Assembly (NCBI GenBank): GCA_964447685.1
Contig: CAYUTI010000003.1
Location: 7,026 to 71,025, forward strand
Source of the DNA: Candidatus Woesearchaeota archaeon
GTDB taxonomy: Archaea; Nanobdellota; Nanobdellia; SCGC-AAA011-G17; CAYUTI01
DNA length: 64,000 nucleotides
Direction of reading: 5' to 3'
Under the pieces are notes generated by a model. That model saw only the letters and a list, made by a program, of their open reading frames with translations. It had not been told where the DNA came from and made no database searches. The position numbers and the translations under genes were made by a program. Each line of letters begins with the position of its first letter. The stretch's first letter is position 1. This document shows positions 8,077-55,546 of the stretch, in pieces.

Positions 8077-9223
8077 ATATAAGCCAAAAAAATCTTCTGA
8101 AATACAAGGCCAAGATACTCCTATAAGAAAATTACGTCATTTTTTAGAGGGTGGAAAAGGTGGTGCAATTATTTATGGTGCAGTTGGAAATGGTAAGAGT
8201 TCTTCTGTTTATGCATTAGCTAAAGAGCTGAATCGGGAAGTTTTAGAAGTTAATGCTTCAGATGTCAGAAATAAAGACGGAATAAATAGCGTTGTTGGAG
8301 AGGGAAGTAAGCAAATGAGTTTATTTGGTCGTAATAAAGTGATTCTAGTTGACGAAGTGGATAGTTTAAGTGGAAAAGATAGAGGGGGTGTACAAGCTTT
8401 AACTGCATTAATTAAAGATAGTGGATGGCCTATTGTGTTTACTGCTAATGACCCATGGGATTCTAAATTAAATTCTCTAAGAAAAGAATGTTTAATGATT
8501 GAATTTGGAACTTTAAATTATTTATCAGTATTCAATGTTTTAAAGAGAATAGCCAATGAAGAAGGAATTAGTTTTAATGATGGAAGTTTAAAAACTCTTG
8601 CTAGAAGAAGTAATGGTGATCTTAGAGCTGCAATAAATGACTTACAATGTTTGGGGCATGAAGGTAATGTTGATGATTTAGAAATTGATGATAGGGAGAT
8701 TAAGGAGGGAGTATTTAATGTTTTAAAAGTAATCCTTAAGAGCAGAAGTATTTTTGATAGTTTGAATATTACTGATAAGAGCGAAGTTGAACTAGATGAA
8801 TTATTCTTGTGGTTGGAAGAAAATATTGGTTATGAGTATAGGAATGGAGCGGATGTTAGTAAGGGTTATGATATGTTAAGTAAAGCTGATGTTTTTAGGG
8901 GCCGTATTCGTAGATGGCAATATTGGAGATTTTTAGTTTACCAAAAATTTTTAATGAGTGCGGGTGTAAGTCTAAGTAAAAAAGAGAGATATTCTGGATT
9001 TTTTACATATAAGAGAAATACTAGAATCCTTAGTTTGTGGCAAGCTAATATGAAATATGCTAAACGAAAATTAATTGCTGAAAAATTAGGTGAAAAAACC
9101 CATTTGGGTGTGAAGAAAGCGGTTCAAGAATTAGGATATTTAAAATACGCAATTATTAAAAACCCTGAAATAGCTAAAGAATTAGAATTAAGTAATGAAG
9201 AAATTGAATGGTTAAAGAAGTGA
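8060..9223 (+). CDS. rfcL: replication factor C large subunit
   Basis: MQWVDKYKPK..., Walker A GAVGNGKSS, DEVD box, RFC-large C-terminal region. Confidence 0.85.
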   Translation: MQWVDKYKPKKSSEIQGQDTPIRKLRHFLEGGKGGAIIYGAVGNGKSSSVYALAKELNREVLEVNASDVRNKDGINSVVGEGSKQMSLFGRNKVILVDEVDSLSGKDRGGVQALTALIKDSGWPIVFTANDPWDSKLNSLRKECLMIEFGTLNYLSVFNVLKRIANEEGISFNDGSLKTLARRSNGDLRAAINDLQCLGHEGNVDDLEIDDREIKEGVFNVLKVILKSRSIFDSLNITDKSEVELDELFLWLEENIGYEYRNGADVSKGYDMLSKADVFRGRIRRWQYWRFLVYQKFLMSAGVSLSKKERYSGFFTYKRNTRILSLWQANMKYAKRKLIAEKLGEKTHLGVKKAVQELGYLKYAIIKNPEIAKELELSNEEIEWLKK

Positions 9224-18682: not shown

Positions 18683-18720
18683 TATCTACTTTAAAGTGAG
18701 AAATCTATTTAAAAAGCTTT

Positions 18721-19536
18721 CTATATCTTAAAATCTACACAAATCCTATATTTTTCTGGGCCATACTGCCCGCATTTAGTTATTTTAAGGACTTTGAAGT
18801 TTTTGAAGTGTTTTTCTATTTTTTTGATAGGGAATATTTCCATATTCTTTTCTTTTTGAAAATCATAGAAGTGGATGATTGTTCCTTTTTTAGAATATTT
18901 TTTTGCTAGACCTAGGTAATAAGAAGCTGATTTTGGTAAGGGCATGATAATCCTATCAAATTTCTTGTTTATTTTAGGTAAGACTTTTGTAACGTTTCCT
19001 TTGAAAAGTTTGATGTTGGTTAAGTGATTTAGTTTAATATTTTCCTGTGCGAATTTATGAGCTTCTGGATTTATTTCTATAGCATAGATCTCTTTTGGTT
19101 TTGCATTCTTAGCTATAACACAAGGGAAAGGTGCAATACCCGAGAACATAACAAGGATTGTTTCTCCTTTTTTTACTTGTTTTGTAATTCTTGCTCTTTC
19201 TGAAGCAGATCTTTGAGAGAAATAAGTTGTTTCTGGATTTATTTTTAATCTTGTGTTATTCTCTTTATGAATAGTAGTTTTTCTATTTTCTCCTGCTAAA
19301 ATTTTTAATTTAGGAGTTCTGTATTTTCCTTGGTAAGCCCCTGTCTTTTTTGTTACAACTTTGATGTGTGAATGAAGTTTTAACATAGTATCTGCTATTT
19401 CTTTTTCATATTTTTTTAGTTTAGGTGAGAGATCTGAGAAAATTGCGATATCTCCCACTTGATCAAAAGATTTTGGTAAGAATTCATGCAAGGATTTTGG
19501 AATTTTCTTTGCTAGTACTTGTTTTAAGTTTGCCAT
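18721..19536 (-). CDS. trm5: tRNA (m1G37) methyltransferase Trm5 / TYW2-like class I SAM methyltransferase
   Basis: Met-10+-like architecture; a SAM-binding motif segment can be read. Overlaps fen by 13 bp (operon). Confidence 0.65.
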   Translation of the reverse strand: MANLKQVLAKKIPKSLHEFLPKSFDQVGDIAIFSDLSPKLKKYEKEIADTMLKLHSHIKVVTKKTGAYQGKYRTPKLKILAGENRKTTIHKENNTRLKINPETTYFSQRSASERARITKQVKKGETILVMFSGIAPFPCVIAKNAKPKEIYAIEINPEAHKFAQENIKLNHLTNIKLFKGNVTKVLPKINKKFDRIIMPLPKSASYYLGLAKKYSKKGTIIHFYDFQKEKNMEIFPIKKIEKHFKNFKVLKITKCGQYGPEKYRICVDFKI

Positions 19537-20549
19537 TTTCCTAATCCTATTTGTTCTTTTGCTTTAGTTATCTTAGTTAGTTTTTCTAAAGTTGAATCTA
19601 CTCTCTCTTCAGAGAATTCATGTTTATCTACTAATAATTTTTTAATTTTTTCTACATCTGGTTTTGACCACTTTAATTGATAGTTTTTCATAACTGGCAT
19701 TGATTTGAAAACAGCATAAATTTCTTTCCAATTAAAATCTGCTTCTACCTCTTTGAATATTTTATCAAAAGAGTGATGTTGTTTAACTAGTTTCAATGCG
19801 GTTTTTGGTCCAATTCTCCTAACTCCACCTATATTATAGTCTGTTCCTACTAAGATTGCTAAAGCTAAAAGCTGATCTTGGTCAATACCTAAATCATTTA
19901 GAACTTTTGATAAAGTAACTATTTCTGGAAAAGTTTGAATATATGAACCTGAAGGCAATCTTCTTCTTTGTGATAAAGTTAAATTCCTAATTAGTTTAGG
20001 AGTTCCATATAATAAAGCATCCGCATCTTGGCTTGCAACTAAATCTACGTCTTTCTTTTCTGCCATGAACGCACATTGGGCTTCTGCTTCTGAAGGTGCT
20101 TGAATCACTGGTAAACCCATTAAAGTTAGAAGTTCTTTTGATTCTTCTACTATCTGTTTGTTAATCCTTATTGTTTGTTTAGAATATTTTAACATAGAAT
20201 CAATATCTTCTTCTTGTTTAGCTTCTTCTAGTTTTTCTGATGCTAGTTGTTTTCTTAGTGAACGTGCTTCTTGCTCTTTTAGTTTAAGTAAAGGTGGTTT
20301 TCCATCAAAGATGAATGCTAGTTTTAATCCTTTGGATGAAAGGTTTGTGATTCTGCTAAAGATTCCTTGTAAGTGAGAAGTTACGTTTCCATTTGAGTCC
20401 ATTAGAGGAGTTCCATCTCTTTGTCTAATACTTGCTAAGAATTGATATATCATTCCAGAAGAGTCTACTGCTATCTTCTTGTTTTTCAGATCATCGAATG
20501 AAATCTCTTCTCCTTTTACTAGTTCCCAAAGTTTAACGCCCATATCCAA
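19524..20549 (-). CDS. fen: flap endonuclease FEN-1
   Basis: MGVKLWELV..., XPG N- and I-domains with conserved acidic residues, helix-3-turn-helix (GIGPKTALKLV). Confidence 0.9.
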   Translation of the reverse strand: MDMGVKLWELVKGEEISFDDLKNKKIAVDSSGMIYQFLASIRQRDGTPLMDSNGNVTSHLQGIFSRITNLSSKGLKLAFIFDGKPPLLKLKEQEARSLRKQLASEKLEEAKQEEDIDSMLKYSKQTIRINKQIVEESKELLTLMGLPVIQAPSEAEAQCAFMAEKKDVDLVASQDADALLYGTPKLIRNLTLSQRRRLPSGSYIQTFPEIVTLSKVLNDLGIDQDQLLALAILVGTDYNIGGVRRIGPKTALKLVKQHHSFDKIFKEVEADFNWKEIYAVFKSMPVMKNYQLKWSKPDVEKIKKLLVDKHEFSEERVDSTLEKLTKITKAKEQIGLGKWQT

Positions 20550-20632
20550 TATATGAATTGTAAAAGTATAAAAGCTTTACCAAAAACTTTATATGCAAGT
20601 TGAAATTTTTAAGTTTCTGAGGTGAAAAAAGA

Positions 20633-21283
20633 GTGATAAAACATGTTTCTTTCCAGCATCCAGGAGGGTATTACTTCTATAGGATGCATAATATCAAGAG
20701 TGAAAGATTAAATAATGGTTTATCAAACTTGAAAGTTTTTTTGAACAACATGTTTGAAGACTGCCCTCATGATTATTTTTTTACAGGTCCTAGGAGTTCT
20801 CAATTAAAATTCCAATTACCTAAACTAGATTTAAAAAAAGTTACTGGGCATGAAGTTTGTGAGTTAACATCTAAGGGTTTAGAAGAAAATTTTTTTAGAT
20901 TTAAAACTGCACATTCTAAAGTTCAGGTTTATATGTTAGAGAATGATGATAAAACTTTAGCGGTTGAAGTTCCTATTTGGTTAAATGCTAATGAGTTGAA
21001 AAATTATTCTAGATTATTTCGTAGTCAGGAACCTTTAACAGGACATATAGATATTTTAAGATTAGAAAATGATAAAATTTGGGTGTGGGATTATAAACCT
21101 AATGCGATCAGAGAAAAATATGCTGCTACTCAAGTTTATTTCTATACTTTAATGTTAAGTAAGAGAACGGGTGTTCCTTTAGATCACTTTAGATGCGGTT
21201 ATTTTGATTCTGCTTATGCTTTTATGTTTAAGCCAGAAGAAATGGAATTTAAAGAAATAAATGAAGAATTATTGAAAAGGTAA
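20633..21283 (+). CDS. hypothetical protein, possibly PD-(D/E)xK nuclease fold
   Basis: GHIDILRLEND...VWDYKP resembles the D...(D/E)xK nuclease core. 216 aa. Confidence 0.35.
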   Translation: MIKHVSFQHPGGYYFYRMHNIKSERLNNGLSNLKVFLNNMFEDCPHDYFFTGPRSSQLKFQLPKLDLKKVTGHEVCELTSKGLEENFFRFKTAHSKVQVYMLENDDKTLAVEVPIWLNANELKNYSRLFRSQEPLTGHIDILRLENDKIWVWDYKPNAIREKYAATQVYFYTLMLSKRTGVPLDHFRCGYFDSAYAFMFKPEEMEFKEINEELLKR

Positions 21284-21865: not shown

Positions 21866-24271
21866 ATGAGTAAAATAGAGATAGAATTTTTTCCACTAGA
21901 TGTGGATTATAAAGTGAATGTACATGGAGAAGCAGTAATAAGACTTTTTGGTAGAGATAACTCTGGAAAAAGGGTTTGTGTTCATGATAATAGTTATAAA
22001 CCTTATCTGTATATTAGCATTGAAAGTGAAAAAGTACTAACTAAACTCAAAAAAGAAATTGTTCTAGAGGAAGGCCCTGTTGAATTTGTTAAAGAAAAAG
22101 AGCTAGTGAAAGTTATTGTAAATACTCCTTCAGATTTGAAAATTATTAAAGATGGTTTAAGAGGGATGAAAGGGGTTTTAGAAGTAAAAGAATATGATTT
22201 ACCTTTTGCAAGGAGATACCTGGTTGATAATAAAATAGTTCCCTTAGTAAAATGTAGGATAAAGGGAGAAGTAATAAATGAAAGAATGGATGTTGATTAT
22301 GTTTTAGATGCTGAAAAGATTCTAGTTGAAGAAGAATCTTTTGAAAATCCTCGAGTTTTAGCCTTAGATATTGAAACTTATAACCCTCAAGGGAGCTATA
22401 GCAACGCAAAAAGAGACCCGGTTATTATGTTAGGAGTTTATGGGCGAGATTTCAAGAAAGTTATAACCTGGAAGAGCTTTAATACAGAGGAAGATTATTT
22501 AGTTTTTGTAAAAAATGAAGCTGAACTAATTAAAGAATTTAAGAGTCTTTTAAAAGAATATAAACCTGATTATATTGTAGGTTATAACACAGATGGTTTT
22601 GATTTTCCTTATTTGAAAGAAAGAGCTAAAAGAAATTCTGTTAAGTTAAATATTGGATTAGATGGTTCTGAAGTTAAATTAAATAAAAATGGTGCGAAAA
22701 TCAAAGGAATTGTACATATTGATTTGTATAAATTTGTCAGTACAATGATGAGAGGTTCTTTATTGTTAGAGAATTATGATTTGAATTCTGTTGCTAAAGA
22801 ATTTCTTAATGAAGAAAAAGATGATATTGATATTTCAAGATTAGGTGAAGCTTGGGATAGAGGAGTATTACAAGAGTTTTGTGACTATAATCTACAAGAT
22901 TGTAAATTGACTTATGATATTTTTTACAAAGTAAAAGAAAATATTCAAGAAGTTGCGAAGTTGGTAGGGCAAAGTATCTATGATGTTAACCGAATGAGTT
23001 ATGGTAACTTAGTTGAATGGTATTTGATAAGGAAATGTAAAGAACAAGGAAAAATAATTCCAGGTAAACCTGCTTATGGTGATGTTGGAGAGAGAAGAAT
23101 GCATACTTATGAAGGGGGATTTGTTTTTGAACCTAAACCTGGTTTGTTTGAAGATATTTGTGTGCTTGATTACAAGAGTTTGTATCCAACTGTTTTAATT
23201 GCTAAGAATATTAGTCCTGAAACTTTGAGCGCTGATAAAAAAGGATCTTATGAAACTCCTGAGATAACTGATGAAGATGGAAAGAAGGTTAAATATTATT
23301 TTAGTTATAAGGAAGAGGGCTTTTTGCCTTCTATTTTGAAAGATTTGATTATTAGAAGGAATAGAATCAAAGAGATGATTGGCAAGAAAAGAGATAAAGT
23401 TTTAGAAGCAAGAAGCTATGCTTTGAAAACTATTGCAAATGCAAGTTATGGTTATTTGGGATTTTTTGGTGCTAGGTGGTATTGCAGAGAGTGTGCAAGT
23501 GCGATAACTGCTTTTGGTAGGGATTATATTAAAAAAACAATTGATGCTGCGAATAAAAAAGGATTTAATGTGCTCTATTCTGATACAGATTCTATCCTAT
23601 TTAGTTTAAATGGAAAGGGAAGGAAAGAAGCGATTGAATTTATGGGAGAAGTGAATAGGGAATTACCTTCTTTAATGGAATTAGAATTAGAGGATTTTTA
23701 CAAGAGAGGAATATTTGTTAATAAGAAAGGTGAAGTTAAGGGAGCTAAGAAGAAATATGCTTTAATTGATGATGATGGGAAAATAAAAATTAGAGGTTTT
23801 GAAACTGTTCGTAGAGATTGGAGTTATCTAGCTCGTGAAGTTCAAAGTAAGGTTTTGAAAATTGTTTTGGAAGAAGGTTCTTTAGAGAAAGCTTTTGAGT
23901 ATGTTACTAAAATAATTGATGATTTAAGAAAAGGTAAAGTAAATATTGAAGAACTAGCAATTCAAACTCAACTTAAGAAACCTTTAGGTTCGTATGATTT
24001 GAAAGGACCCCATGTAGCTGTTGCTCAAAAAATGAAAAAAGCAGGTTATGAAGTTAGAGTTGGAAGTATAATAAAATATATAATTGGGCCTGGAAAAGGA
24101 ATTCTTCGTGATAGAGCAGTTCCTGCTTCAGAAGCTACCGAGTATGATGCTACTTACTATATTGAAAAGCAGATAATCCCTGCTGTAGAAAAGATATTTG
24201 AAGCATTAGGTTACAAAAAGGAAGATTTAATAAGAAGTAAAGAGCAAAAAGGCCTAGGTGATTTTATATGA
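21866..24271 (+). CDS. polB: family B DNA polymerase
   Basis: Exo motifs (LDIETYN, YNTDGFDFPYL), Pol motif A DYKSLYPT, motif B KTIANASYGYLG, motif C YSDTDS. 801 aa, no intein. Confidence 0.95.
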   Translation: MSKIEIEFFPLDVDYKVNVHGEAVIRLFGRDNSGKRVCVHDNSYKPYLYISIESEKVLTKLKKEIVLEEGPVEFVKEKELVKVIVNTPSDLKIIKDGLRGMKGVLEVKEYDLPFARRYLVDNKIVPLVKCRIKGEVINERMDVDYVLDAEKILVEEESFENPRVLALDIETYNPQGSYSNAKRDPVIMLGVYGRDFKKVITWKSFNTEEDYLVFVKNEAELIKEFKSLLKEYKPDYIVGYNTDGFDFPYLKERAKRNSVKLNIGLDGSEVKLNKNGAKIKGIVHIDLYKFVSTMMRGSLLLENYDLNSVAKEFLNEEKDDIDISRLGEAWDRGVLQEFCDYNLQDCKLTYDIFYKVKENIQEVAKLVGQSIYDVNRMSYGNLVEWYLIRKCKEQGKIIPGKPAYGDVGERRMHTYEGGFVFEPKPGLFEDICVLDYKSLYPTVLIAKNISPETLSADKKGSYETPEITDEDGKKVKYYFSYKEEGFLPSILKDLIIRRNRIKEMIGKKRDKVLEARSYALKTIANASYGYLGFFGARWYCRECASAITAFGRDYIKKTIDAANKKGFNVLYSDTDSILFSLNGKGRKEAIEFMGEVNRELPSLMELELEDFYKRGIFVNKKGEVKGAKKKYALIDDDGKIKIRGFETVRRDWSYLAREVQSKVLKIVLEEGSLEKAFEYVTKIIDDLRKGKVNIEELAIQTQLKKPLGSYDLKGPHVAVAQKMKKAGYEVRVGSIIKYIIGPGKGILRDRAVPASEATEYDATYYIEKQIIPAVEKIFEALGYKKEDLIRSKEQKGLGDFI

Positions 24272-28998: not shown

Positions 28999-31206
28999 TT
29001 ATTTTTTCTTTTTTGTTTCTTTTTTAGCAGCTACAATTCTTTCAGTATAGAAACATTTAGGGAATTTAGAACAACCATAGAATGCACCATAAACAGAAGT
29101 TCTTAAAACTAGTTCTCCTTCTTTACATTTAGGACATTTTTCTCCAACTTTTTTAGCTAGTTTTCTTTCTGCTTTTTTAATAGGGCAGTCAGGATTTATA
29201 CAAACTATTTGGGGCCTTTTACCTTTTCTGATTACAGAAACCATTGGAAAACCACAGTGTTCACAAACTTTATCTGTAGATTTGATTAAAGATCTAGCAG
29301 GTAGAGAATAGGTTTTTTTACAGTCTTCATTGGTACAAGCTACAAAATATTGTTTATTCTTAGGAGAATACATTATTTTTAATCTGCCATTTTTACAGAT
29401 CTTACAAGGACCTAGATCAGATTCTTCTTCTCTGGTTTTAATATAAGTTTTTCTTAGTTCTTTACCAACTTTTTCTTCGTGTTTCTTGAAATCTTTAAGT
29501 ATTTTAGTTAGAAGTTTTTCAGCTTTTTCTAGAATTTGCTTTTCTTTGTATTTCTTCTCTCTAATCTGATCCATTTGCTTTTCGAAATCTCTTGTTAGTT
29601 CTTCATCTACTATTTCTGGTGAATATTTTTCTAATACAGAGATTGTTTCTAAACCTAAATCAGTAACTTTGATTGATTTTTCTTCGATATAACTTCTTTC
29701 ATATAAAGAATCTAAGATGTTTGCTCTAGTTGCTTTGGTTCCTAAATTTCTTTTTTCTAGTTCTTTAATAATAGAAGCAGGTGTAAATCTTTTTGGTGGT
29801 TGAGTCTCTTTTGCTAGTTGTTCTATCTTCTTAACTTTAACTTCATCTTGTTTTTGAACTTCTGGAAGAGTTTCTTCTTTTAGTTTTAGGAAAGAACCGT
29901 AGAGAGTGTGCCAACCTTTTTCTATTGTTCTGGTTCCTTTTGTTATGAATAGTTCTTTGTTAACATCAATTTCTAGAGTGATGGTTTCTCTTTTAGCTGG
30001 TTCTCCAAAGGTTGCTAAGAATCTGTGAACAATTAAATCATATAATCTCTTTTCCCGAGGATCTAGTTTCTTAGGAACTTCTCCTGTAGGATGTACAGCT
30101 GAGTGAGCTGGATCTGTTTTTGCTCCTTCATTAGGTCTTAAGTTATCTTTAGACAATAATCCTTCTGCTAATTTTTTAAAAGAAGGCTGTTTTGATAGGT
30201 TTTGGAGTATTTTTTTAAGATTTAAAGAGGGAGGTAATTTTTGTGATGATGTTCTCGGATATGAAATATATCCTGCGGTATAAAGCTCTTGAGCTAAAGC
30301 TTGAGTTTGTTTTGGTGAAAATCCTAAGGTTCTATAAGCTTCCATTTGTAATGAAGTTAAATCAAAGGGAGCAGGTGGAGCTTGGGTGAATTGTGAAGCT
30401 TTTACGTCTTTTATGAAAGCAGGTTTACCTTTTGTAGCTTTCATAACTTTATCTGCTTCTTTTTTGTCCCAGAACTTTTCTTTTTTATGTTGTGCTGTAA
30501 TAGTATTAGTTTTTATTTTTCCTTGAAGTTCTATTTCCCAAAAAGGTTTTGGTTTGAATTTTTTAATTTCTTTTTCTCTATCTGCTAATAATTTTAGAGC
30601 TGGACCTTGTACACGCCCTGCTGAAAGAATTTTGAACATTCCTGCCTTTTTTATTGCTACAGTTAATGCTCTTGAAATATTAATTCCCCACATGAAATCC
30701 ATGAAGTGTCTAGTTTCTCCTGCTTCTGCTTGTCCCCAATCTAAATGTTTTTGAGCTTTTTCATAAGATTCTATTAATTCATCTTTTGTTAATGTGGAAT
30801 ATTTCATTCTAGAAGCATCTTTTTGTTTACAAAGATATTTTATGATATTAAGCCCTATAACTTCTCCTTCAATATCATAGTCTGTTGCAACAATAAAATG
30901 ATCTGCTTGTTTGGATAGTTTTTCAATAACATCTAAGTAAGGTTTAGTATAAGCTGAAGCTTTTTTAGCTTCATAAGCAGGTTTCCAGGTTAAATCAAAA
31001 GTAGGATACTTCATTCCTTGCTTTTCTTTTTCAGTTACAGAGTATAAATGACCTACTGCACAAACCACTAAAATCTTCTTATTCTTGTGAGTTAGTTCAT
31101 AATAAGGTACTTTTCCGATAGTTAATTTTTTAGGTTTTTTATCTGCTAAAGCTGTTGCTATTTTTTGTGCGGCGCTTGGCTTCTCAGTAATTATTAATTG
31201 TACCAT
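28999..31206 (-). CDS. topA: DNA topoisomerase I (type IA) with C-terminal zinc ribbons
   Basis: TOPRIM N-terminus, active-site GYISYPRTSS, three C-terminal Cys4 ribbons. Confidence 0.9.
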   Translation of the reverse strand: MVQLIITEKPSAAQKIATALADKKPKKLTIGKVPYYELTHKNKKILVVCAVGHLYSVTEKEKQGMKYPTFDLTWKPAYEAKKASAYTKPYLDVIEKLSKQADHFIVATDYDIEGEVIGLNIIKYLCKQKDASRMKYSTLTKDELIESYEKAQKHLDWGQAEAGETRHFMDFMWGINISRALTVAIKKAGMFKILSAGRVQGPALKLLADREKEIKKFKPKPFWEIELQGKIKTNTITAQHKKEKFWDKKEADKVMKATKGKPAFIKDVKASQFTQAPPAPFDLTSLQMEAYRTLGFSPKQTQALAQELYTAGYISYPRTSSQKLPPSLNLKKILQNLSKQPSFKKLAEGLLSKDNLRPNEGAKTDPAHSAVHPTGEVPKKLDPREKRLYDLIVHRFLATFGEPAKRETITLEIDVNKELFITKGTRTIEKGWHTLYGSFLKLKEETLPEVQKQDEVKVKKIEQLAKETQPPKRFTPASIIKELEKRNLGTKATRANILDSLYERSYIEEKSIKVTDLGLETISVLEKYSPEIVDEELTRDFEKQMDQIREKKYKEKQILEKAEKLLTKILKDFKKHEEKVGKELRKTYIKTREEESDLGPCKICKNGRLKIMYSPKNKQYFVACTNEDCKKTYSLPARSLIKSTDKVCEHCGFPMVSVIRKGKRPQIVCINPDCPIKKAERKLAKKVGEKCPKCKEGELVLRTSVYGAFYGCSKFPKCFYTERIVAAKKETKKKK

Positions 31207-34896: not shown

Positions 34897-34904
34897 CTTT
34901 AAAA

Positions 34905-34980
34905 TGGGCCCGAGGGGATTTGAACCCCCAACCACCCGATTAAGAGTCGGGTGCTATAAACCAGGTTAAGCCACGAGCCC
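34905..34980 (-). tRNA. tRNA-Lys (anticodon CUU), CCA encoded
   Basis: Minus-strand sequence GGGCTCGTGGCTTAACCTGGTTTATAGCACCCGACTCTTAATCGGGTGGTTGGGGGTTCAAATCCCCTCGGGCCCA folds as a cloverleaf: 7-bp acceptor stem, anticodon stem CCCGA/TCGGG with loop CTCTTAA, T-loop TTCAAAT. Confidence 0.8.
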
Positions 34981-35065
34981 ATAGGTTATCCAAGGAAAAT
35001 ACTATTTAAAAAGTTATTGATATAGTGTAATTAATTTTAAATACTTCTAATTTCTTTATCTATTC

Positions 35066-46232: not shown

Positions 46233-48069
46233 TTTTTTTTAGGATAGCTTGCTTACCTTTCCAATCTAAAGCTTCTTTAAGGACTTGTTTTATATTGTTA
46301 CAAGGAATGATTTCTATCTTCTTTAGTTTATCTTTTGGTAATATCACATCATCTTTATTAGATTCTGGAATAATTACTCTTTTGATGCCTGCTTCAATTG
46401 CTGCTTCAATCTTTTGAGTTACTCCACCAATAGCTAAAACTTCTCCTCTAATTGATAAGGATCCTGTTAAAGCTGTGTCTTGCCTTACAGGTATTTGTTT
46501 TAATGCGGACATAATTGCTGTTGCGACTGATATAGATGCTGAATCTCCTTCTACACCTTCAGGGGTACCTAAGAATTGTATGTAAACATCATATTTCTCT
46601 TTAATATCTTCCCCAAAATTCTTAAGAATAATTGCTGAAACATTCTTTACTGCTTCTTGAGCTATTTTTCCTAGTTGACCTGTTGCTATGAATTCTGCTT
46701 TTTTTCCTCCAGGAGTTACTTCTGATTCTATTGGGAGGACTATTCCAGAGTAAGCACTATCTCCACCTAGAACTGCTAAACCATTTACTCTTCCTACTTG
46801 AGTTCCTTCTGTTTTAATTACTTGATATTGTTTCTTTTCTTCTATGTATTTATCAGCTAGTTGTTGTTCTAAAGGTCTTGCGAATACTTTAGCTTGTGTA
46901 ACATGATGTTCATCTGTAAATTTACTATTTTGTTCTAAGGCTAAATCACCTGCGGCTCTTATTATTCCACCTAATTCTCTTAATCTTAGAGTTAGTCTAT
47001 TTGCTCTACCTGCTCTACGTTTTGATTCTCTTATTATCTCTTCTACAGCATCTTTAGTAAAGTGAGGTATCTTTTGATCTTTAATTACTTCCTGTGCTAC
47101 AAACTGTGCTATTTTGTTTCGGTTTTCTTCTGTATCAGGCATATCATTATTCATATGGATCTCATAACCATATCCCCTTATTCTAGATCTCAATGCTGGA
47201 TGCATATTTTTGATTGTTTCTAAGTTTCCAGCTGCAACTAGAATAAAATCACATGGAACAGGTTCTGTTCTGGTCATTGCTCCTGAAGATCTTTCTGATT
47301 GTCCTGTAATAGGATATTTCTTTTCTTGAATTGCTGTTAATAGCTCTTGTTGAGTGTGAGGTTGTAAGGTTGCTATTTCATCTATGAATAAAACCCCTTT
47401 GTTTGTTTTATGGATCATCCCTGCTACAACTCTTTCATATGCAGGAGTACCTAAACCTCCTGATTGTAATGGGTCATGGAGTACATCACCTAGTAAAGCT
47501 CCTGCATGTGCTCCTGTTGCATCTTCAAAAGGTGCTTTTTCATTTTTTGAATTATCTACTAAAAGTTTTGGTATTTGTGCTTCAGCAATTTTCATCTTCT
47601 TTCCTAGATTTAAGAATAAAATGAATGATGCTAAGAAAAGCATTGAACCAATTAGTGACGCTGCAGCCATAATATCCCCATAAACAGATCTAATCCACCA
47701 AGGCATGATCATTGCAGCTATTACTAATACGAAGAATATAATATTTTGATTTTTTAATGAAGATGCTGCTTGTAATTTCTGTCTTCTGACTATTTGTTGA
47801 CCTTGTCCAGCAGGTAATGTTTTAATTAAAGGATTATTATCATCAATTTGGTTAGGTATTGAAAGAATATCTACTAACTTCTCTTTTGGTAAAAGTTCTG
47901 CTAAAGCCAGACCAATCATTGATTTTCCAGTGCCTGGTTCTCCAATTAATAAAACATTTCTTCTCTGTTTAGCAGCTTTTTTAATTACTTCTAAGGCATG
48001 TTCTTGGCCTATCACTTGATCCACTAATTTAGTTGGTACTTTGATATCTTTAGTTGTCTTATAGTTCAT
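46225..48069 (-). CDS. lon: archaeal membrane-bound Lon protease (LonB)
   Basis: AAA+ Walker A GEPGTGKS, two inserted TM helices, C-terminal Lon protease domain with a Ser-Lys dyad region. Confidence 0.9.
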
Positions 48070-48428: not shown

Positions 48429-48728
48429 TTATTGCTTTTTCTTTATTGGAGAATTTATGAAACTTGGTATTTCTGGTGATATATCCAAATCAGTACTTTC
48501 TGCTTGATCTTCTAAAGTATCTACAACTGCTGCACCTGTAATAATAATAGAATTATCTGTTTGAATTAAGTTATGTTGTGCCATATAACCTAATGTAAAA
48601 AATAAAATTACTAAGACTAATACAGTTAAAATCATTAAACCTCTAGTTTTTTTCATAACTTTATGCTTAAATAGCTCTACTAATAGCATTAAGAAGACTA
48701 TTCCTAAAATTAAATATAATATTGACAT
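48429..48728 (-). CDS. small membrane protein
   Basis: Two TM helices. Confidence 0.35.
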   Translation of the reverse strand: MSILYLILGIVFLMLLVELFKHKVMKKTRGLMILTVLVLVILFFTLGYMAQHNLIQTDNSIIITGAAVVDTLEDQAESTDLDISPEIPSFINSPIKKKQ

Positions 48729-48794
48729 TTATTTTTACACCTCTAATAAAATTATATGTATAATATGTATTTAAAATTAACTAAAATGAAATTG

Positions 48795-49117
48795 GGACCC
48801 CTACACCTTCATTTCTTATGGAGTATTATTATTAAAATTTTAATATCTTAAGTATATTTATTGTTTGTTTTAAGATATTAGATAAAATAAGGTTTTTATT
48901 TTTAAGTAATGAATTATTATTATTTTATTAGTAGAAGGCATATATTATTATTTATTTAGTATTTAGTTTTTTTATTATTTATATTTATTTTATAAATATT
49001 ATTATTATATATTATATATATTTTATTATATATATTAAAATTAATATTTTTCTAAAGGAAATCAACGAGTTATTTTTTAAAAATTAAGTTCCAATGGAAA
49101 CGTAGGTGTAGGTGTAG
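48795..49117. promoter_or_regulatory. candidate oriC: two inverted ORB-like elements flanking a ~265-bp extremely AT-rich DUE, immediately upstream of orc1/cdc6
   Basis: ORB-right ttccaatggaaacgtaggtgtaggtgtag (49089-49117) matches the archaeal ORB consensus TTCCAnTGGAAAcg..gg. ORB-left (48795-48823) reads ctccataagaaatgaaggtgtaggggtccc on the minus strand. Between them is nearly pure A/T. Confidence 0.65.
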
Positions 49118-49161
49118 TATAACAATCTTTAAATATATGTTCACTTTAAAAAGTTTTGAAA

Positions 49162-50373
49162 ATGGGGGAAAAGATGTTAAGTGGGTTTTTTGAAGACTAT
49201 CTAAAGAAGGAACCTTTATTTAAAGATAAAAGTGTTCTTCAAGCTAATCATACTCCTAATAAAATTTTACATAGAGATGATCAAATTGATCAAGTTGCTA
49301 GTATTTTAGCTCCTTCTTTAAGAATGGAAAAACCAAGTAATGTTTTTATTTATGGTAAAACTGGTTCAGGTAAGACTTGTGTTGTTAAATATGTTACTTC
49401 TGAAATAAAAGAGATGGCTAATAAAAATGATTTACCTGTTAAGATATTTTATCTAAATTGTAAATTAAAGAGGGTTGCTGATACTGAATATAGGTTAATA
49501 GCTGAATTAGCAAGGGAGTTTGGAGATGATGTTCCTGCTACAGGACTTCCTACTGATGAGGTTTATAAGATATTTTTAAAGTCTGTAGAGAAAGAGAAAA
49601 TTCTATTTATTATTATTTTAGATGAGATTGATCAATTAGTCCATAAAGCTGGAGATGAGATTCTTTATAATTTAACTAGATTAAATTCTGAGTTAAAAGA
49701 AAGTCAAATTTCTATAATTGGTATATCTAATGATCTTTTATTTACTGATAATTTAGATCCTCGTGTTAAAAGTAGTTTAAGTGAGGAAGAAATTCATTTT
49801 CATCCTTATAATGCTTTACAATTACAAAAAATTTTACATGAAAGAGCAAAAGTTGCTTATAGAGATAATGTTCTTGAAGAAGGTCTTATTGAAAAATGTG
49901 CTGCTTATGCTGCACGTGAACATGGGGATGCAAGAAGAGCTTTAGAATTATTAAGGGTTGCGGGGGAATTAGCTGAAAGAAGAAGCCAAAGTATAGTTAG
50001 TATTAGTTTTTTAGATGAAGCTGAGAAAAAAATTGAAAAAGATAGAGTTTTGGAAGTTGTTAAAACTCAACCTAAACAATGTAAATTAGCTTTACATGCT
50101 ATATTTACTTTGTGCTTAAAGAATGATAAGAAACCGGTTTTTACAGGTGATATATATGAAATCTATAAAGATTCCTGTTTTAAGTGTGGTGTAAGGCCTT
50201 TAACCCAGAGACGATTGAGTGATATTATTGCTGAATTAGATATGTTAGGAATAATAAATGCTAAAGTAATTAGTAAAGGTCGATATGGTAGAACTAGGGA
50301 AATTCAATTAGATATTCCTTCTTCAACAATTAAGAAAATTCATGATTTGTTGAAGGAGGGACTTGAGTTATGA
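49162..50373 (+). CDS. cdc6: Orc1/Cdc6 replication initiator
   Basis: AAA+ Walker A GKTGSGKT, Walker B/sensor motifs, C-terminal winged helix. Confidence 0.9.
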   Translation: MGEKMLSGFFEDYLKKEPLFKDKSVLQANHTPNKILHRDDQIDQVASILAPSLRMEKPSNVFIYGKTGSGKTCVVKYVTSEIKEMANKNDLPVKIFYLNCKLKRVADTEYRLIAELAREFGDDVPATGLPTDEVYKIFLKSVEKEKILFIIILDEIDQLVHKAGDEILYNLTRLNSELKESQISIIGISNDLLFTDNLDPRVKSSLSEEEIHFHPYNALQLQKILHERAKVAYRDNVLEEGLIEKCAAYAAREHGDARRALELLRVAGELAERRSQSIVSISFLDEAEKKIEKDRVLEVVKTQPKQCKLALHAIFTLCLKNDKKPVFTGDIYEIYKDSCFKCGVRPLTQRRLSDIIAELDMLGIINAKVISKGRYGRTREIQLDIPSSTIKKIHDLLKEGLEL

Positions 50374-51998
50374 AAGATGTTGTATGTTCTTTTTTAGAGA
50401 AAGGTTTTTTAGTAAGTCCTGATTTTTTAAGTAGTTTACCCTCTAATTTTGATGAAAATTTATTTTTTAAAAAACTTTTTGATAAATTTAATACTAAGAA
50501 CAAACCTGTTGTTTTAAATAAAGATCTTTTTTTAATGGTTGAAAGTATTAAAGATATTGTAAATTTAAATTGGAAAGAATTTGAGGTTTCTAAAGTTCTT
50601 TATGAAAAAAATAAAGATGATAAATTATATCCTTCTTTTTTGAATTTTTTTAAACTTAAAGATAATGAGATGAAGGTTAAGAAGATAATTAATGAGATTG
50701 AGAAGGATGAGGGGTATATAGAAGATGAAGTAGATGTTTCTGATAGTAGTGTAATTGTTTTAAGTACTTATAAAGACCCTGGTAAGAAAAAAGAAATAAA
50801 GGATTTTGTAGGATATTTTAAATCAAGATATGATTCTTTGAAAGGAATTTTATTAAATAGAGAAGAATTACAAGGTTGTTTATCTATTAAAAATATAACT
50901 AAAGAAAGTGGTAATGTAGGTATTATAGGTATAATTTCTGATATTACTTTCACTAAAAATGATAATTGTATATTAACTTTAGAAGATTTAACTGGATCAA
51001 TTAAGGTTTTAATTACTAAAAAGAATACTGAATTATTTAGTTTAGTTAAAGACTTAGTTTTGGATGAGGTTATTGGTGTAGTTGGTGCTGCAGGAGATGG
51101 TATTGTATTTTCTAATCAGATTTATTTTCCAGATATCCCTTTGAATAAAGAATTCAAAAAAGTGAATGAAGATGTTTTTGTTGCTTTTACGGCTGATTTA
51201 CATATTGGTTCTAATATGTTTTTTGCTGATGATTTTCTTCGTTTTATTAATTGGTTGAATGGTGAAGTTGGAAATGGTAAACAAAGGGAGTTAGCTAAAA
51301 GAGTTAAATATCTTTTTATTGTTGGGGATTTAGTTGATGGTGCTGGAATCTATCCAGATCAAGATAAGGAATTAGTTATTAAAGATGTTTCTAAACAGTA
51401 TGAAAAATGTGCTGAATATTTGGGGAAGATACGTAAAGATTTGAAAATTGTTATATGTGCAGGTAATCACGATGCATTAAGAATTGCAGAACCTCAACCT
51501 ATTCTTAATAAGGATTTGGCCAAATCCCTCTATGAGTTACCTAATTTAATTATGGTTACTAATCCTAGTTTAGTAAATATACACTCTTCTAAAGATTTCC
51601 CAGGTTTTGATATATTATTATATCATGGATATAGTTTTCAATACTTTGCAGATAAAGTTGAGAGTGTAAGAGTTGCAGGGGGAACTGATCGAACTGATTT
51701 AATTATGAAATTTTTATTACAAAAAAGACATTTAGCCCCTTCACATACTTCTACATTATATATACCCCATCCAAATGAGGATCCTTTATTGATTAATAAG
51801 GTCCCAGATTTTTTTGTTACAGGCCATATGCATAGAACTTCTGTTATAAATTATCGTAATGTGACTTCTATTGGGTGTGGTTGTTGGCAAGGACAAACTG
51901 CTTTTATGGAGAAAGTGGGTGTACATCCAGATCCATCAAGAGTGAGTTTAATTAATTTAAAGACAAGGGAGGTTAAGATACTTAACTTTTCAAAATGA
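50370..51998 (+). CDS. DNA polymerase II (PolD) small subunit DP1
   Basis: OB-fold followed by a calcineurin-like phosphodiesterase domain (DLHIGS, GDLVDGAGIYP, GNHD, GHMH). Start overlaps the cdc6 stop. Confidence 0.85.
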   Translation: MKDVVCSFLEKGFLVSPDFLSSLPSNFDENLFFKKLFDKFNTKNKPVVLNKDLFLMVESIKDIVNLNWKEFEVSKVLYEKNKDDKLYPSFLNFFKLKDNEMKVKKIINEIEKDEGYIEDEVDVSDSSVIVLSTYKDPGKKKEIKDFVGYFKSRYDSLKGILLNREELQGCLSIKNITKESGNVGIIGIISDITFTKNDNCILTLEDLTGSIKVLITKKNTELFSLVKDLVLDEVIGVVGAAGDGIVFSNQIYFPDIPLNKEFKKVNEDVFVAFTADLHIGSNMFFADDFLRFINWLNGEVGNGKQRELAKRVKYLFIVGDLVDGAGIYPDQDKELVIKDVSKQYEKCAEYLGKIRKDLKIVICAGNHDALRIAEPQPILNKDLAKSLYELPNLIMVTNPSLVNIHSSKDFPGFDILLYHGYSFQYFADKVESVRVAGGTDRTDLIMKFLLQKRHLAPSHTSTLYIPHPNEDPLLINKVPDFFVTGHMHRTSVINYRNVTSIGCGCWQGQTAFMEKVGVHPDPSRVSLINLKTREVKILNFSK

Positions 51999-54900
51999 GC
52001 TCTGAAAGTAAAGTAATGGCCAAGTATTTTGATAATTTAGATAGTAGTGTAAATACTTGTTTAAAAATTTGTAATGAAGCTAAGAGTAAAGGTTTTGATC
52101 CTGAAGAAAAGGTAGATGTTGTTTTAGCTAAAAATATGGCTGAAAGAGTAGAAGGTTTGATTAGTACTGTTGCTCCACAAATTAAAGGTTCGGGAATTGT
52201 AGAAAGAATTATTGAGCTAGAGAAAGAATATGGACAACAAGATTGGAGAGTTGCTAATTTTATTGCTTTAGAGGTTACCCAAGAAAAATTCTGTAAGTTT
52301 TCTGATAAAAGAGAGGCAATGGAGGTTGGTTTAAGGATTGGTTTAGCTTATATTACTGTAGGAGTCGTTGCTAGTCCTTTAGAAGGTTTTGTTAAATTAG
52401 AACTTAAAAAAAGAAAGGATGGCAAAGGGGAGTATTTTGCTTTATTCTTTTCTGGTCCTATTAGAAGTGCTGGAACTACAGCTACTTGTATATTTGTTGC
52501 TTTAGCAGATTATGTTAGAAGGAATATGGGTTATGCTGCTTATGATCCTACTCAAGATGAAATTAAAAGGATGAGTACTGAATTAATAGATTTTCATGAG
52601 AGAGTAACCAATTTACAATATTTTCCAACTGCTGAAGAAATCGAATTTATGACTAAATCCTTGCCTGTTCAAATTGATGGAGATCCTTCTGAAAAAGTAG
52701 AAGTAAGTAACTATAAGGATCTTGATAGGATTGAAACAAATCGGTTAAGAAATGGAGTATGTTTGGTTATGGCAGAGGGATTATGTCAAAAAGCTGCAAA
52801 ATTCTGGGGTAGATATTCTAAATGGAATAATGATATTGGGATGGAATCTTGGGTCTTCCTTGATGATTTTGTTAATTTACAGAAAAAAATTAAGGCTAAA
52901 GGTAAGGTTGCTAGTGAGGATGGAAAGGAGGTAAAGGTAAAACCAGATTATACTTTTATTAAAGATTTAGTTGCAGGTAGACCTGTCTTTTCACATCCTT
53001 TAGCAGTAGGTGGTTTTAGGATTAGATATGGTAGATGTAGAAACTCTGGCTTTTCTGCTCAGGCAATTCACCCTGCTACTATGTTTTTATTAAATCATTT
53101 TATAGCAATTGGTACACAATTGAAAGTAGAAAGGCCAGGTAAGGCTTGTGTTATTGGTTCTTGTGATAGTGTAGAAGGTCCTGTTGTTAAACTTAAGAAT
53201 GGTTCAGTTGTTCTTGTTGAAAATGAAAATCAAGCTAAAAAAATTGCTAAAGATATAGAAGAAATTATCTTTTTAGGTGATACATTAATTAATTATGGGG
53301 ACTTTTTTAATAGAGCTCATATTCTTTTACCTCCAGGCTATTGTGAGGAGTGGTGGTTCTTAGAAGTTAAGAGGGCTCTTGAAGATAAAAAAATGAAGTT
53401 TAAGGATTTGGGTTTTGATTTTTTTGATGAATTAGAAAAAGATCCGATTCATTTTAAAATTAATGCTGAGCAGGCAATCATTATTTCTGAAAAATTAGGA
53501 GTACCTTTACACCCTCGTTATACTTATCATTGGAAGGATATTAGTATAGATCAATTTTTGAGTTTAATTAATTGGTTAGAGAAAGCAAGTATCCAAAAAA
53601 GTAAAATCATATTTCCTTCAGAGTATGATATTGAAGAACATATTGAAAAAGATGACCCTAAAAGAGTTCTTGAATTAATTGGAGTTCCACATAAATGTGT
53701 GGGTACTGAACATGTTATTATTGAAGGAGATGATGCAGATGCTTTTGCTGCTAGCTTAGGTTTTTATAGTCATGATTTGGATGAGGATTTAATTCGTAAA
53801 GCTTGTTTAGATAAAAAAGATGTTTTGGATCTTATGAATTCTATCTCTGAAGTTAAGCTAAGGGATAAAAGTGGTTATTTTATGGGGGCTAGAATGGGAA
53901 GGCCAGAAAAAGCTAAAATGCGTAAGTTAGATGGAAGCCCACAAGTTTTATTTCCTGTTGGTAAAGAAGGAGGTAAGATGAGATGTTTTCAATCTGCTTT
54001 GGAAAAAGGACATATTGTTTCAGATTTTGCAACATATTATTGTGATAAATGTAAAAAAGATACTATCTACCCTATTTGTGAAAATTGTTCTTCTAAAACC
54101 ACTAAAGTTTATTATTGTCCTGAATGTATGAAAAATTATCTTGATAATAGTTGTGAAAAACATGGTGATCTGAAACCTTTTAAAAGCCAGAAGATAGATA
54201 TTGAGTATTATTTTAAGAAAGCACTTGATAATTTGAATATTAAAGACCATCCAGAATTAATAAAAGGTGTTAGAGGAACTAGTAATGAGGACCATTTCCC
54301 TGAGCATTTATGTAAAGGTTTGTTACGTGCTAAACATAATATCTATGTAAATAAGGATGGTACTACTCGTTATGATATGACTGAGATGACGATTACTCAT
54401 TTTAAACCTAAAGAAATAGGTACTAGTATAGAAGTTTTGAGAGAATTAGGGTATACTAAAGATATCTATGGAAAAGATCTTGTTAAAGATGACCAAATTT
54501 TAGAATTAAAAGTCCAAGATGTTATTTTACCTAGCTGCGATGATGCTTTGGAGGAAGGTGCTGATCTAGTATTATATAGGGTTACTAAGTTTATTGATGA
54601 TTTATTAGTTAAATTATATGGGGTTAAACCCTTTTATAATCTTAAAAATAAAAAAGATTTAGCAGGACACCTTATAATTGGTTTAAGCCCACATACTTCT
54701 GCAGGAATTGTAGGAAGAATAATTGGTTTTTCTAAAACTCAAGGATTTTTAACTAGTCCTTTATTCCATAGTATAATGCGTCGTGATTGTGATGGTGATG
54801 AGGCAGGAGTTATGTTATTGATGGATGCATTTTTAAATTTTTCACGTAAATTTTTACCCGCTCATAGAGGAGCAAAACAAGATGAACCACTTGTTCTAAC

Positions 54901-55546
54901 TTCTAAATTAATTCCTGGAGAAGTTGATGATATGGTTTTTGATATGGACACCTGCTGGAGTTACCCTTTAGAATTTTATCAGGCTTGTTTAGAATATAAA
55001 TACCCTTGGGATGTTGAAATTGAAAGATTTAAATCTCGGTTGGGTAAGGAGTCACAATACGAAGGTTTAGGGTTTACACATGATACTGTTAATATTAATA
55101 ATGGAGTTAGATGTAGTGCGTATAAATCTATTCCTTCTATGCAAGAAAAAGTATATGGACAAATGGATCTGGCTGAAAAGATTCGGGCTGTTGATGAAGT
55201 AGATGTTGCATCTTTGGTTATTGAAAGACATTTTGTTAGAGATATTAAAGGTAATCTAAGAAAGTTTAGTATGCAACAGTTTAGGTGTGTGGATTGTAAC
55301 TCTAAATTCAGAAGACCTCCTTTAGTTGGTAAGTGTACTAATTGTGGGGGAAGAATTATATTTACTATTGCAGAGGGTAGTGTAATTAAATACTTAGAGC
55401 CTAGTTTGAGTTTAGCTGAGAAATATGATCTACCTCCTTATTTAAGACAAACTTTAGAATTGACTAAACTTCGTATTGAAAGTGTTTTTGGAAAAGAGGA
55501 CGAAAAACAAGAAGGTTTAGGAAGATGGTTTGATAAAAAAGTTTAA
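51995..55546 (+). CDS. DNA polymerase II (PolD) large subunit DP2
   Basis: 1183 aa, DP2 Zn-finger clusters (CDKCKK...CENC, CVDCNSKF...CTNCGG), intein-free. Start overlaps the DP1 stop. Confidence 0.9.
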   Translation: MSSESKVMAKYFDNLDSSVNTCLKICNEAKSKGFDPEEKVDVVLAKNMAERVEGLISTVAPQIKGSGIVERIIELEKEYGQQDWRVANFIALEVTQEKFCKFSDKREAMEVGLRIGLAYITVGVVASPLEGFVKLELKKRKDGKGEYFALFFSGPIRSAGTTATCIFVALADYVRRNMGYAAYDPTQDEIKRMSTELIDFHERVTNLQYFPTAEEIEFMTKSLPVQIDGDPSEKVEVSNYKDLDRIETNRLRNGVCLVMAEGLCQKAAKFWGRYSKWNNDIGMESWVFLDDFVNLQKKIKAKGKVASEDGKEVKVKPDYTFIKDLVAGRPVFSHPLAVGGFRIRYGRCRNSGFSAQAIHPATMFLLNHFIAIGTQLKVERPGKACVIGSCDSVEGPVVKLKNGSVVLVENENQAKKIAKDIEEIIFLGDTLINYGDFFNRAHILLPPGYCEEWWFLEVKRALEDKKMKFKDLGFDFFDELEKDPIHFKINAEQAIIISEKLGVPLHPRYTYHWKDISIDQFLSLINWLEKASIQKSKIIFPSEYDIEEHIEKDDPKRVLELIGVPHKCVGTEHVIIEGDDADAFAASLGFYSHDLDEDLIRKACLDKKDVLDLMNSISEVKLRDKSGYFMGARMGRPEKAKMRKLDGSPQVLFPVGKEGGKMRCFQSALEKGHIVSDFATYYCDKCKKDTIYPICENCSSKTTKVYYCPECMKNYLDNSCEKHGDLKPFKSQKIDIEYYFKKALDNLNIKDHPELIKGVRGTSNEDHFPEHLCKGLLRAKHNIYVNKDGTTRYDMTEMTITHFKPKEIGTSIEVLRELGYTKDIYGKDLVKDDQILELKVQDVILPSCDDALEEGADLVLYRVTKFIDDLLVKLYGVKPFYNLKNKKDLAGHLIIGLSPHTSAGIVGRIIGFSKTQGFLTSPLFHSIMRRDCDGDEAGVMLLMDAFLNFSRKFLPAHRGAKQDEPLVLTSKLIPGEVDDMVFDMDTCWSYPLEFYQACLEYKYPWDVEIERFKSRLGKESQYEGLGFTHDTVNINNGVRCSAYKSIPSMQEKVYGQMDLAEKIRAVDEVDVASLVIERHFVRDIKGNLRKFSMQQFRCVDCNSKFRRPPLVGKCTNCGGRIIFTIAEGSVIKYLEPSLSLAEKYDLPPYLRQTLELTKLRIESVFGKEDEKQEGLGRWFDKKV

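Follow-up and report, generated by a model that had tools for sequence, protein, structure and literature searches.

A conserved Orc1–ORB module and probable replication origin upstream of the orc1–polD genes in Woesearchaeota, set in DNA whose strand asymmetry mostly does not switch there

In Sulfolobus, an inverted pair of origin recognition boxes (ORBs) binds Orc1 monomers with a defined polarity and directs MCM to a duplex-unwinding element (DUE), an arrangement that provides for bidirectional loading (PMC12141716), and a mini-ORB of S. solfataricus, GATTTTCAGATGAAACG, is bound by Orc1-1 (PMC3089459). The oriC1 of Haloarcula hispanica presents, on the top strand, a C-string at the left box and a G-string at the right one; the initiator's AAA+ domain touches the DNA at the G-string, and both ORBs, together with their G-strings, are genetically essential (PMC3936714). 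In Pyrococcus, 13-bp mini-ORBs are numerous and dp1 contains another cluster of ORBs, and the ORB1 and ORB2 cores of P. furiosus, TTCCAGTGGAAAT and CTCCAGTGGAAAT, are bound by purified Cdc6 in vitro (PMC1904270); the cdc6-adjacent Pyrococcus origin was first found by cumulative skew, according to the passage of PMC5905446 that cites Myllykallio et al. (2000). Here we describe, in a 64-kb stretch of DNA from a woesearchaeote (DPANN, Nanobdellota), hereafter the window, to which all coordinates refer, an inverted ORB pair around an AT-rich spacer next to orc1/cdc6, which is probably the Orc1-dependent replication-origin module (oriC1 type) of this Woesearchaeal chromosome. We know of no characterised replication origin in DPANN archaea. 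A literature search found no paper analysing ORBs or GC skew in Woesearchaeota, and a preprint on 208 complete Nanobdellota genomes uses ORC1 only as a rotation point (10.64898/2026.05.13.725050).

Two ORB-like sequences in inverted orientation, GGACCCCTACACCTTCATTTCTTATGGAG at 48795-48823 and TTCCAATGGAAACGTAGGTGTAGGTGTAG at 49089-49117, stand in the window exactly as they had been quoted in a preliminary description of this DNA, which took the region for a canonical oriC of the Pyrococcus type. Each conforms to the ORB definition, a TTCCA-N2-3-GGAAA dyad plus a G-string (TTCCAATGGAAACGTAGGTGT in the right box, ORB-R, and CTCCATAAGAAATGAAGGTGT in the left box, ORB-L; Table 1); ORB-R can be read as TTCCAATGGAAAC-GTA-GGTGT and ORB-L, on the minus strand, as CTCCATAAGAAAT-GAA-GGTGTAGGGGT. 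By manual count the two cores are identical at 18 of 24 positions, and the longest inverted pair returned by a repeat search of the region has its arms at 48797-48837 and 49075-49115 (41 nt, 73% complementary). A position-weight matrix (PWM) derived from related loci, with the consensus TTCCAnnGGAAAtnaaGGGGTg, gives 28.2 bits to ORB-L (match at 48800-48824) and 25.4 bits to ORB-R, compared with a peak of 19.6 bits over 50 shuffles of the window, and the number of matches to the right 21-mer expected by chance is zero. Scanned with this matrix, the window holds exactly three strong ORBs, the inverted pair and a copy at 43428-43452, together with one weak copy that consists of the dyad only. The latter, a mini-ORB at 49049-49073, is tentative because its score lies below the shuffle maximum; in several relatives the proximal plus-strand ORB is preceded, about 70 nt upstream, by another on the same strand.

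The stretch between the boxes, which had been likened to a DUE for its nearly pure A/T composition, is indeed the AT maximum of the window (mean 69.1%, standard deviation 3.7%). Its core, at 48951-49050, is 98% AT, and the least stable and most AT-rich segments of 100, 200 and 265 nt in the 64 kb all fall on it, so that the window contains the inverted ORB pair around an AT-rich element that is looked for in an Orc1/ORB origin. The region is no assembly artefact, since 551 nt of it are 100% identical in an independent assembly of the same strain (Logan SRR14492172, L164). Rfam and tRNA scans returned nothing in the intergenic region, the single match elsewhere in the window being a tRNA-Lys at 34904-34981. 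As a separate observation on the spacer, 13 contigs of at least 10 kb from relatives end within 700 nt upstream of orc1 where 1.3 would be expected (Poisson P of about 1.5e-9), assembly breaks in the AT-rich spacer thus being about ten times commoner than expected; contigs that end there include L003, L008, L015, L017, L023, L025, L027, L028, L033, L038, L050, L056, L070, L072 and L075. These breaks could be due to low coverage of DNA that is about 98% AT, or to variability of the origin at the population level.

The start codon of orc1 lies 57 nt downstream of ORB-R, which places the gene of the cognate initiator directly beside the boxes. The succession of orc1/cdc6 and the co-directional DP1 and DP2 genes, with their ATGA-overlapping starts, is as first described and is borne out by Pfam and NCBIfam matches and by the coordinates. 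In metagenome-assembled genomes of Woesearchaeota and Nanoarchaeia, many proteins that bear the name 'ORC1-type DNA replication protein' share about 70% identity with this Orc1. Its best relatives of solved structure are S. solfataricus Orc1-1 (2QBY_A, E = 7.6e-103) and Aeropyrum pernix ORC1 (2V1U_A, E = 1.3e-95), and in the alignment to these two the winged-helix stretches TQRR...GRYG.T.EI are kept. ORC1/Cdc6 belongs to the 101 single-copy orthogroups that OrthoFinder selected in Nanobdellota, a selection that tolerated some below-threshold occupancy (10.64898/2026.05.13.725050).

The arrangement was compared across 80 loci from species-representative genomes and 80 from metagenomes, with five context loci added through exact-protein matches. 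Among the 113 loci that include at least 1200 nt upstream of orc1 (60 in the genome set and 53 in the metagenome set), the succession of minus-strand ORB, AT-rich spacer and plus-strand ORB is present in 95 (53 of 60 and 42 of 53), and an ORB on the plus strand, some -40 to -250 from orc1, occurs in 57 of 60 and 46 of 53, respectively. Every paired locus has its dyads turned toward the spacer and its G-strings outward; the median spacer measures 277-306 nt, and its AT content exceeds that of its own locus in 95 of 95 pairs by about 17 points (80% versus 62.5% in 53 of 53 genome pairs, 83% versus 66% in 42 of 42 metagenome pairs). The conservation in relatives on which the preliminary description had made its reading depend is therefore there, and the layout, which it had called unexpected in a tiny AT-rich genome, is instead the rule in the clade. 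A search pattern taken from the window only (the dyad with at most two mismatches and a GGKG-type tail) found 142 matches in the 66 kb that make up the 1 kb upstream of orc1 in the genome set (2.15 per kb), versus 57 in the remaining 812 kb (0.07 per kb), while the PWM from the genome loci, applied to the independent metagenome set, gave 1.96 matches per kb upstream of orc1 versus 0.024 per kb elsewhere. ORB density upstream of orc1 is thus 30-80 times that in the rest of the sequence.

The boxes also keep a strict polarity. ORBs within 250 nt of orc1 lie on the plus and minus strands in a proportion of 76 to 12 in the genome set and 80 to 16 in the metagenome set, and the distal ones are on the minus strand in 34 cases versus 4 on the plus strand in the genome set; in the metagenome set, the bin from -500 to -250 holds 39 minus-strand versus 2 plus-strand copies, and the sequence out to -1000 another 18 versus none. 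The ORB consensus of the clade is aTTTCCAtaGGAAAtaaaGGGGTg. Downstream of orc1, DP1 is the next gene in all 80 loci and DP2 follows in 76 of 80. Besides the ORB in a winged-helix gene described below, the roughly 1.6 Mb of sequence sampled yielded no further ORB cluster. Anatomy, statistical significance, clade-wide conservation and polarity, and initiator type are matters of direct observation here, and the locus is well supported as a conserved Orc1–ORB origin module.

In its layout the locus resembles the oriC1 of Sulfolobus, Aeropyrum and the haloarchaea, in which two inverted full ORBs likewise surround an AT-rich DUE upstream of an Orc1-1-type gene, and the closeness of its initiator to S. 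solfataricus Orc1-1 and A. pernix ORC1 fits the same type. The outward polarity of the G-strings is that of H. hispanica oriC1, although the window has the G-string GGTGTAGG in place of the GGGG(T) of oriC1, GGGGT being the consensus of the clade. The spacer of 265 nt (clade median about 290) compares with a 130-bp ORB3-DUE-ORB2 region in S. islandicus. Unlike the oriC1 systems, the Woesearchaeal locus has an accessory ORB in a gene 2-7 kb away, and the strand composition of the window does not switch at the site. The likeness to Pyrococcus and the other Thermococcales is more limited. The order oriC-cdc6-dp1-dp2 and the two inverted long ORBs are common to both, and the dyad of the window, TTCCAATGGAAAC, is nearly identical to the P. 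furiosus ORB1 and ORB2 cores (it also resembles the S. solfataricus mini-ORB). In contrast, the array of mini-ORBs is represented in the window by the single weak candidate at 49049-49073 (13 bits), the distance from dyad to G-string is 4 nt rather than the 9 nt of Pyrococcus, and dp1 contains no ORB cluster, with no PWM match of at least 10 bits in the window and none of at least 18 bits in the related loci scanned. The Pyrococcus-type arrangement of the preliminary description thus holds for the order of the genes and not for the mini-ORBs or the dp1 cluster, and its canonical oriC stands as a conserved Orc1/ORB module, with only partial support for a canonical bidirectional origin of the Pyrococcus type.

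Table 1. Positions of the ORBs, the spacer, the putative promoters and the genes around them in the window
Feature	Position	Strand	Remarks
ORB-L, full origin recognition box	48797..48824	-	Minus-strand reading ACTCCATAAGAAATGAAGGTGTAGGGGT; dyad toward the AT-rich spacer, G-string outward (left)
AT-rich spacer, presumed DUE	48825..49088	.	90.6% AT over 265 nt
Weak mini-ORB, dyad without G-string	49049..49073	+	TTTCTAAAGGAAATCAACGAGTTAT, 13.2 bits; oriented like ORB-R, which lies 39 nt downstream
ORB-R, full origin recognition box	49088..49117	+	GTTCCAATGGAAACGTAGGTGTAGGTGTAG; dyad toward the spacer, G-string outward to orc1
Putative orc1 TATA box	49128..49137	+	TTTAAATATA; starts 10 nt past the end of ORB-R, ~40 nt ahead of the orc1 ATG (49174)
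orc1/cdc6, 399 aa, Orc1-1 type	49174-50373	+	Pfam Cdc6_C, Cdc6_lid, AAA; NCBIfam ORC1-type equivalog, 521 bits (cutoff 501)
PolD DP1	50370-51998	+	Pfam; ATGA overlap with orc1
PolD DP2	51995-55546	+	Pfam; ATGA overlap with DP1
Putative TATA box of the divergent 99-aa gene	48767..48776	-	Minus-strand TTTTAAATAC; ~20 nt outside ORB-L
Divergent 99-aa ORF	48429..48728	-	~100-aa gene at the same position in L164 and L165
PRC-barrel gene, 87 aa	48111-48374	-	Farther upstream of orc1 than the 99-aa ORF
LonB gene	46225-48069	-	Farther upstream of orc1 than the PRC-barrel gene
Accessory ORB	43428..43452	-	GTTCCATAGGAAATCAAGGGGTCTA, 32.7 bits, top ORB score in the window; orientation of ORB-L; 5.4 kb away
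Coiled-coil and winged-helix gene, 222/226 aa	42995-43675	-	Accessory ORB in the linker-coding part, then short tandem repeats

Judged by analogy with the systems above, the locus most likely serves for origin recognition by Orc1 and for loading the helicase on the 265-nt spacer; that Orc1 binds, that MCM is loaded and that replication initiates here would follow by homology. Each inverted ORB would take one Orc1 monomer, its winged-helix domain placed on the TTCCA..GGAAA dyad at the spacer side and the initiator-specific motif (ISM) of its AAA+ domain on the outward G-string, and the two bound initiators would recruit MCM to the 265-bp, 91% AT spacer, which would then melt. The third ORB, 5.4 kb away in the winged-helix gene, would be a further conserved Orc1 target. 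The occupancy of the boxes by Orc1 probably also modulates how orc1 and polD are expressed. Of the two divergent promoters, that of orc1-polD lies on the right and that of the 99-aa gene on the left; their putative boxes, assigned from the archaeal TATA consensus, lie 10-20 nt from an ORB end and precede a start codon by about 40 nt, so that Orc1 complexes should influence the transcription of orc1-polD and of the 99-aa gene. More than 20 relatives (L016, L031, L035, L037, L038, L047, L052, L064 and L066 among them) have an additional ORB-like dyad on the minus strand, TTCCAAAGGAAACAAAGGTTTATAAA, at about -30 to -55, after the TATA box of orc1 and before its start codon, which is likely an Orc1 autorepression site; by manual reading, all that the window retains of this dyad is a degenerate version at 49138-49152, matching 9 of 13 dyad positions.

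The accessory ORB belongs to a gene whose product combines a coiled coil at the N-terminus with a conserved winged helix at the C-terminus and gives only weak matches to HTH_11, HTH_24 and DnaD_N, in a family of 84 unnamed members, all from Nano- or Woesearchaeota. In many relatives this gene lies 2-7.5 kb from orc1, and each copy contains an ORB (L002, L007, L011, L030, L032, L045, L053, L081, L082, L090, L119, L153, L154, L165 and L166). In most members of the family the embedded ORB encodes S-[SIT]-G-N-x-G-V, the same nucleotide motif being read in another frame, as PQE[AME]KGS, in P0143, P0148, P0150, P0154 and P0170; L011 carries the motif in the opposite orientation with respect to its gene. 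It is therefore the DNA, not the peptide, that is under selection, and an ORB kept inside coding sequence in two frames represents a clean case of DNA-level selection overriding the encoded peptide. The embedded ORB is always followed by lineage-specific microsatellites, with repeats of CATT, CAAT, CACT, GCGT or CCGAACAATG. An extra site for the loading or titration of Orc1, regulation of the gene and a fork barrier are among its possible roles. Between the winged-helix gene and a divergent 139-aa gene, at 43692-43771, there are several direct repeats, (A)TGTTTAAATGA, spaced by 13-31 nt, that are possibly operator sites.

Other genes around the locus are conserved to different degrees. The PRC-barrel protein is kept upstream of the origin in 14 of 80 loci (tblastn, median identity 74%) and is present in L081, L082, L165 and L166 as well. 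Four genes of DNA metabolism lie within 45 kb of the origin, at 8048-9223, 15384-16697, 21866-24271 and 28999-31206 (an RFC-like AAA+ protein, a HerA-like helicase, a family B DNA polymerase and topoisomerase I). A block of genes for TctA, an OB-fold protein and a Tyr/Trp-tRNA synthetase comes after DP2 in the window (56633-59511) and in L081 and L082; in L165 it is found at 18387-20636, about 17 kb upstream of orc1, so that rearrangement must have taken place around the origin in these genomes. A gene for a Xer-like tyrosine recombinase (273 aa), some 10 kb from the origin, adjoins one for a PadR regulator (38181-39342 in the window), a pairing that is kept in the syntenic relatives L165 (11551-13917) and L166 (16991-18371). 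The stretch from the Xer-like gene to the winged-helix gene, occupied by variable small open reading frames and in L166 by MazG and ParE/MazE, could be a variable island. In a short-word BLAST comparison with 11 syntenic loci, the interval from the origin to the Xer-like gene showed only coding conservation and the accessory ORB, and no dif-like or other conserved site outside genes was found.

Strand composition is where the evidence runs counter to the locus being an active origin of the ordinary kind. The preliminary description had expected a skew minimum here; raw cumulative GC skew climbs across the whole window with only a shallow dip at 47-49 kb, attributable to the divergent gene orientation there, and as far as the window reaches the minimum lies elsewhere. 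To set the effects of strand apart from those of coding, GC skew was taken at third codon positions (GC3); it keeps its sign across the locus, the plus strand being G-rich and T-rich on both sides from -49 to +15 kb. On the coding strand, GC3 skew is +0.445 for plus-strand genes to the left of the locus (n=23) and +0.533 for those to the right (n=10), and -0.04 (n=30) and -0.44 (n=2) for the minus-strand genes on the left and right; overall the plus strand has 18.0% G versus 12.9% C and 37.1% T versus 32.0% A. A switch of strand asymmetry, supportive of an Orc1/ORB origin without defining one, is thus missing from the window, and such a skew pattern is shown by only 18 of 224 RefSeq archaea (PMC7111523). 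The strongly skewed relatives, judged on stretches of 13-21 kb as compared with the 64 kb of the window, behave similarly: in about 15 of 18 the skew does not change sign across the ORB region, and among 50 loci it is higher on the right than on the left in 25 (Wilcoxon p = 0.89), which indicates no tendency. Without inverting, the skew is positive in L007, L019, L024, L030, L051, L134, L141, L144 and L152, likewise in L165, and negative in L018, L031, L045, L046, L067 and L096. Its strength in these relatives (0.3-0.7) is carried by both gene orientations with the same plus-strand sign, on which ground transcription or codon usage was rejected as the reason why it does not invert; the apparent reverse flips of L026 and L048 are accounted for by transcription and codon usage. 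In L082 and in the 909-kb contig L081 the skew is weak. A systematic search for flips free of confounding by gene orientation returned only two, both exactly at the ORB region: an origin-type flip in L080, where GC3 skew passes from -0.60 to +0.51 at the ORBs with all genes on the plus strand, and one of the reverse type in L055, from +0.21 to -0.23. Over about 324 kb of strongly skewed sequence the flip search found none. If the site initiates replication, it has therefore not been a symmetric bidirectional origin over evolutionary time in the genome of the window, because the strand composition does not invert at it. To hold that the site is an origin and skew simply a poor guide is not very satisfying, given the strength of the skew.

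This behaviour stands out against that of Ca. Forterrea (Diapherotrites, DPANN), where a classical cumulative GC skew places the origin at cdc6 (PMC5905446), whereas the skew of the window, like that of most strongly skewed Woesearchaeota, passes unchanged through the orc1 locus; the Pyrococcus origin, too, was located by a skew that has no counterpart in the window. One explanation would be that the ORB pair and spacer are kept mainly as Orc1 sites regulating the two divergent promoters, or as a dormant origin, and that the forks normally come from elsewhere. We consider this doubtful, although the continuous skew of the window and of most strongly skewed relatives, with a sign relative to orc1 that varies as it would for an arbitrary position in a replichore, speaks for it, as do the TATA boxes adjoining both ORBs and the additional dyads between the orc1 TATA box and start codon of the relatives. 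There are also precedents: dormant origins adjacent to orc1 are reported in Haloferax mediterranei (PMC4595724), and Thermococcus kodakarensis is reported to do without oriC and Cdc6 (PMC5663688). A mere operator, however, needs neither a spacer of 200-450 nt, AT-enriched by 17 points in all 95 pairs, nor G-strings that strictly point outward. Orc1 is reported as single-copy in the phylum, the 1.6 Mb sampled offer no ORB cluster other than the winged-helix-gene ORB, and the sole unconfounded skew flips are located exactly at the ORB region. A weak secondary origin was rejected as a general explanation, since it predicts a step in the magnitude of the skew, whereas same-orientation genes in 35 loci have no consistent step; one is hinted at in the window and in L165.

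Alternatively, the strongly skewed Woesearchaeota, including the genome of the window, may replicate essentially in one direction from an active ORB-DUE-ORB origin, or terminate right beside it. One fork would then copy nearly all of the chromosome, a single strand would be leading throughout and the skew would not invert at the origin. The model would reconcile a canonical architecture with third-position GC and AT skews that keep their sign from one side to the other, over at least 64 kb in the window and 13-21 kb in about 15 relatives, and in several loci of positive skew (the window, L134, L141 and L144) the gene directly to the left of the origin has near-zero or reversed skew. A parallel is found in the order UBA1400 within the candidate phyla radiation (CPR), bacteria with similarly small genomes, whose monotonic whole-chromosome skew was read as unidirectional theta replication or an origin-adjacent terminus (PMC7143001). 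As in the window, a strong disparity between G and C does not invert at the expected origin, but the UBA1400 systems are bacterial and DnaA-based and had their pattern shown in entire closed genomes, whereas here stretches of 13-64 kb around the origin are concerned. Several points make one-directional replication distinctly unlikely. Relative to orc1 the skew differs in sign from locus to locus, roughly 10-15 being positive and 6-8 negative, so that the direction would have to differ among lineages that share the layout, and no architectural difference is seen between the two groups. Moreover, a symmetric inverted ORB pair is the bidirectional-loading layout of Sulfolobus (PMC12141716), and the comparison with 11 syntenic loci found no conserved dif-like or terminator-like site beside the origin. 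Were replication to proceed in one direction nonetheless, the accessory ORB could be part of the asymmetry, for example as a polar Orc1 roadblock, and these genomes would be the archaeal counterpart of the monotonic-skew CPR bacteria. That an ordinary AT-rich divergent promoter region, in a genome of 69% AT and with 48 short inverted repeat pairs in the region, merely happens to carry two ORB-like words is next to impossible and refuted by the conservation analysis, given a chance expectation of zero and a motif enriched 30-80 times, with fixed polarity, in 160 independent relatives.

On balance we favour an active origin with reasonable confidence, about a quarter of that weight falling to its unidirectional variant, because of the long AT-rich spacer, the strict polarity of the boxes, the reported single copy of Orc1, the lack of other ORB clusters in the sampled sequence and the skew flips at the ORBs. 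The clade-wide ORB consensus, polarity and spacing translate into a concrete origin model for uncultivated archaea. It is unexpected that an origin module so canonical and so deeply conserved should lie in DNA whose very strong strand asymmetry does not switch there. Either the site is not used symmetrically in both directions, or initiation takes place elsewhere, or skew is made differently in these organisms, and each of these alternatives would bear on the prediction of origins in DPANN archaea, on the validation of their genomes and on the inference of growth rates from coverage.

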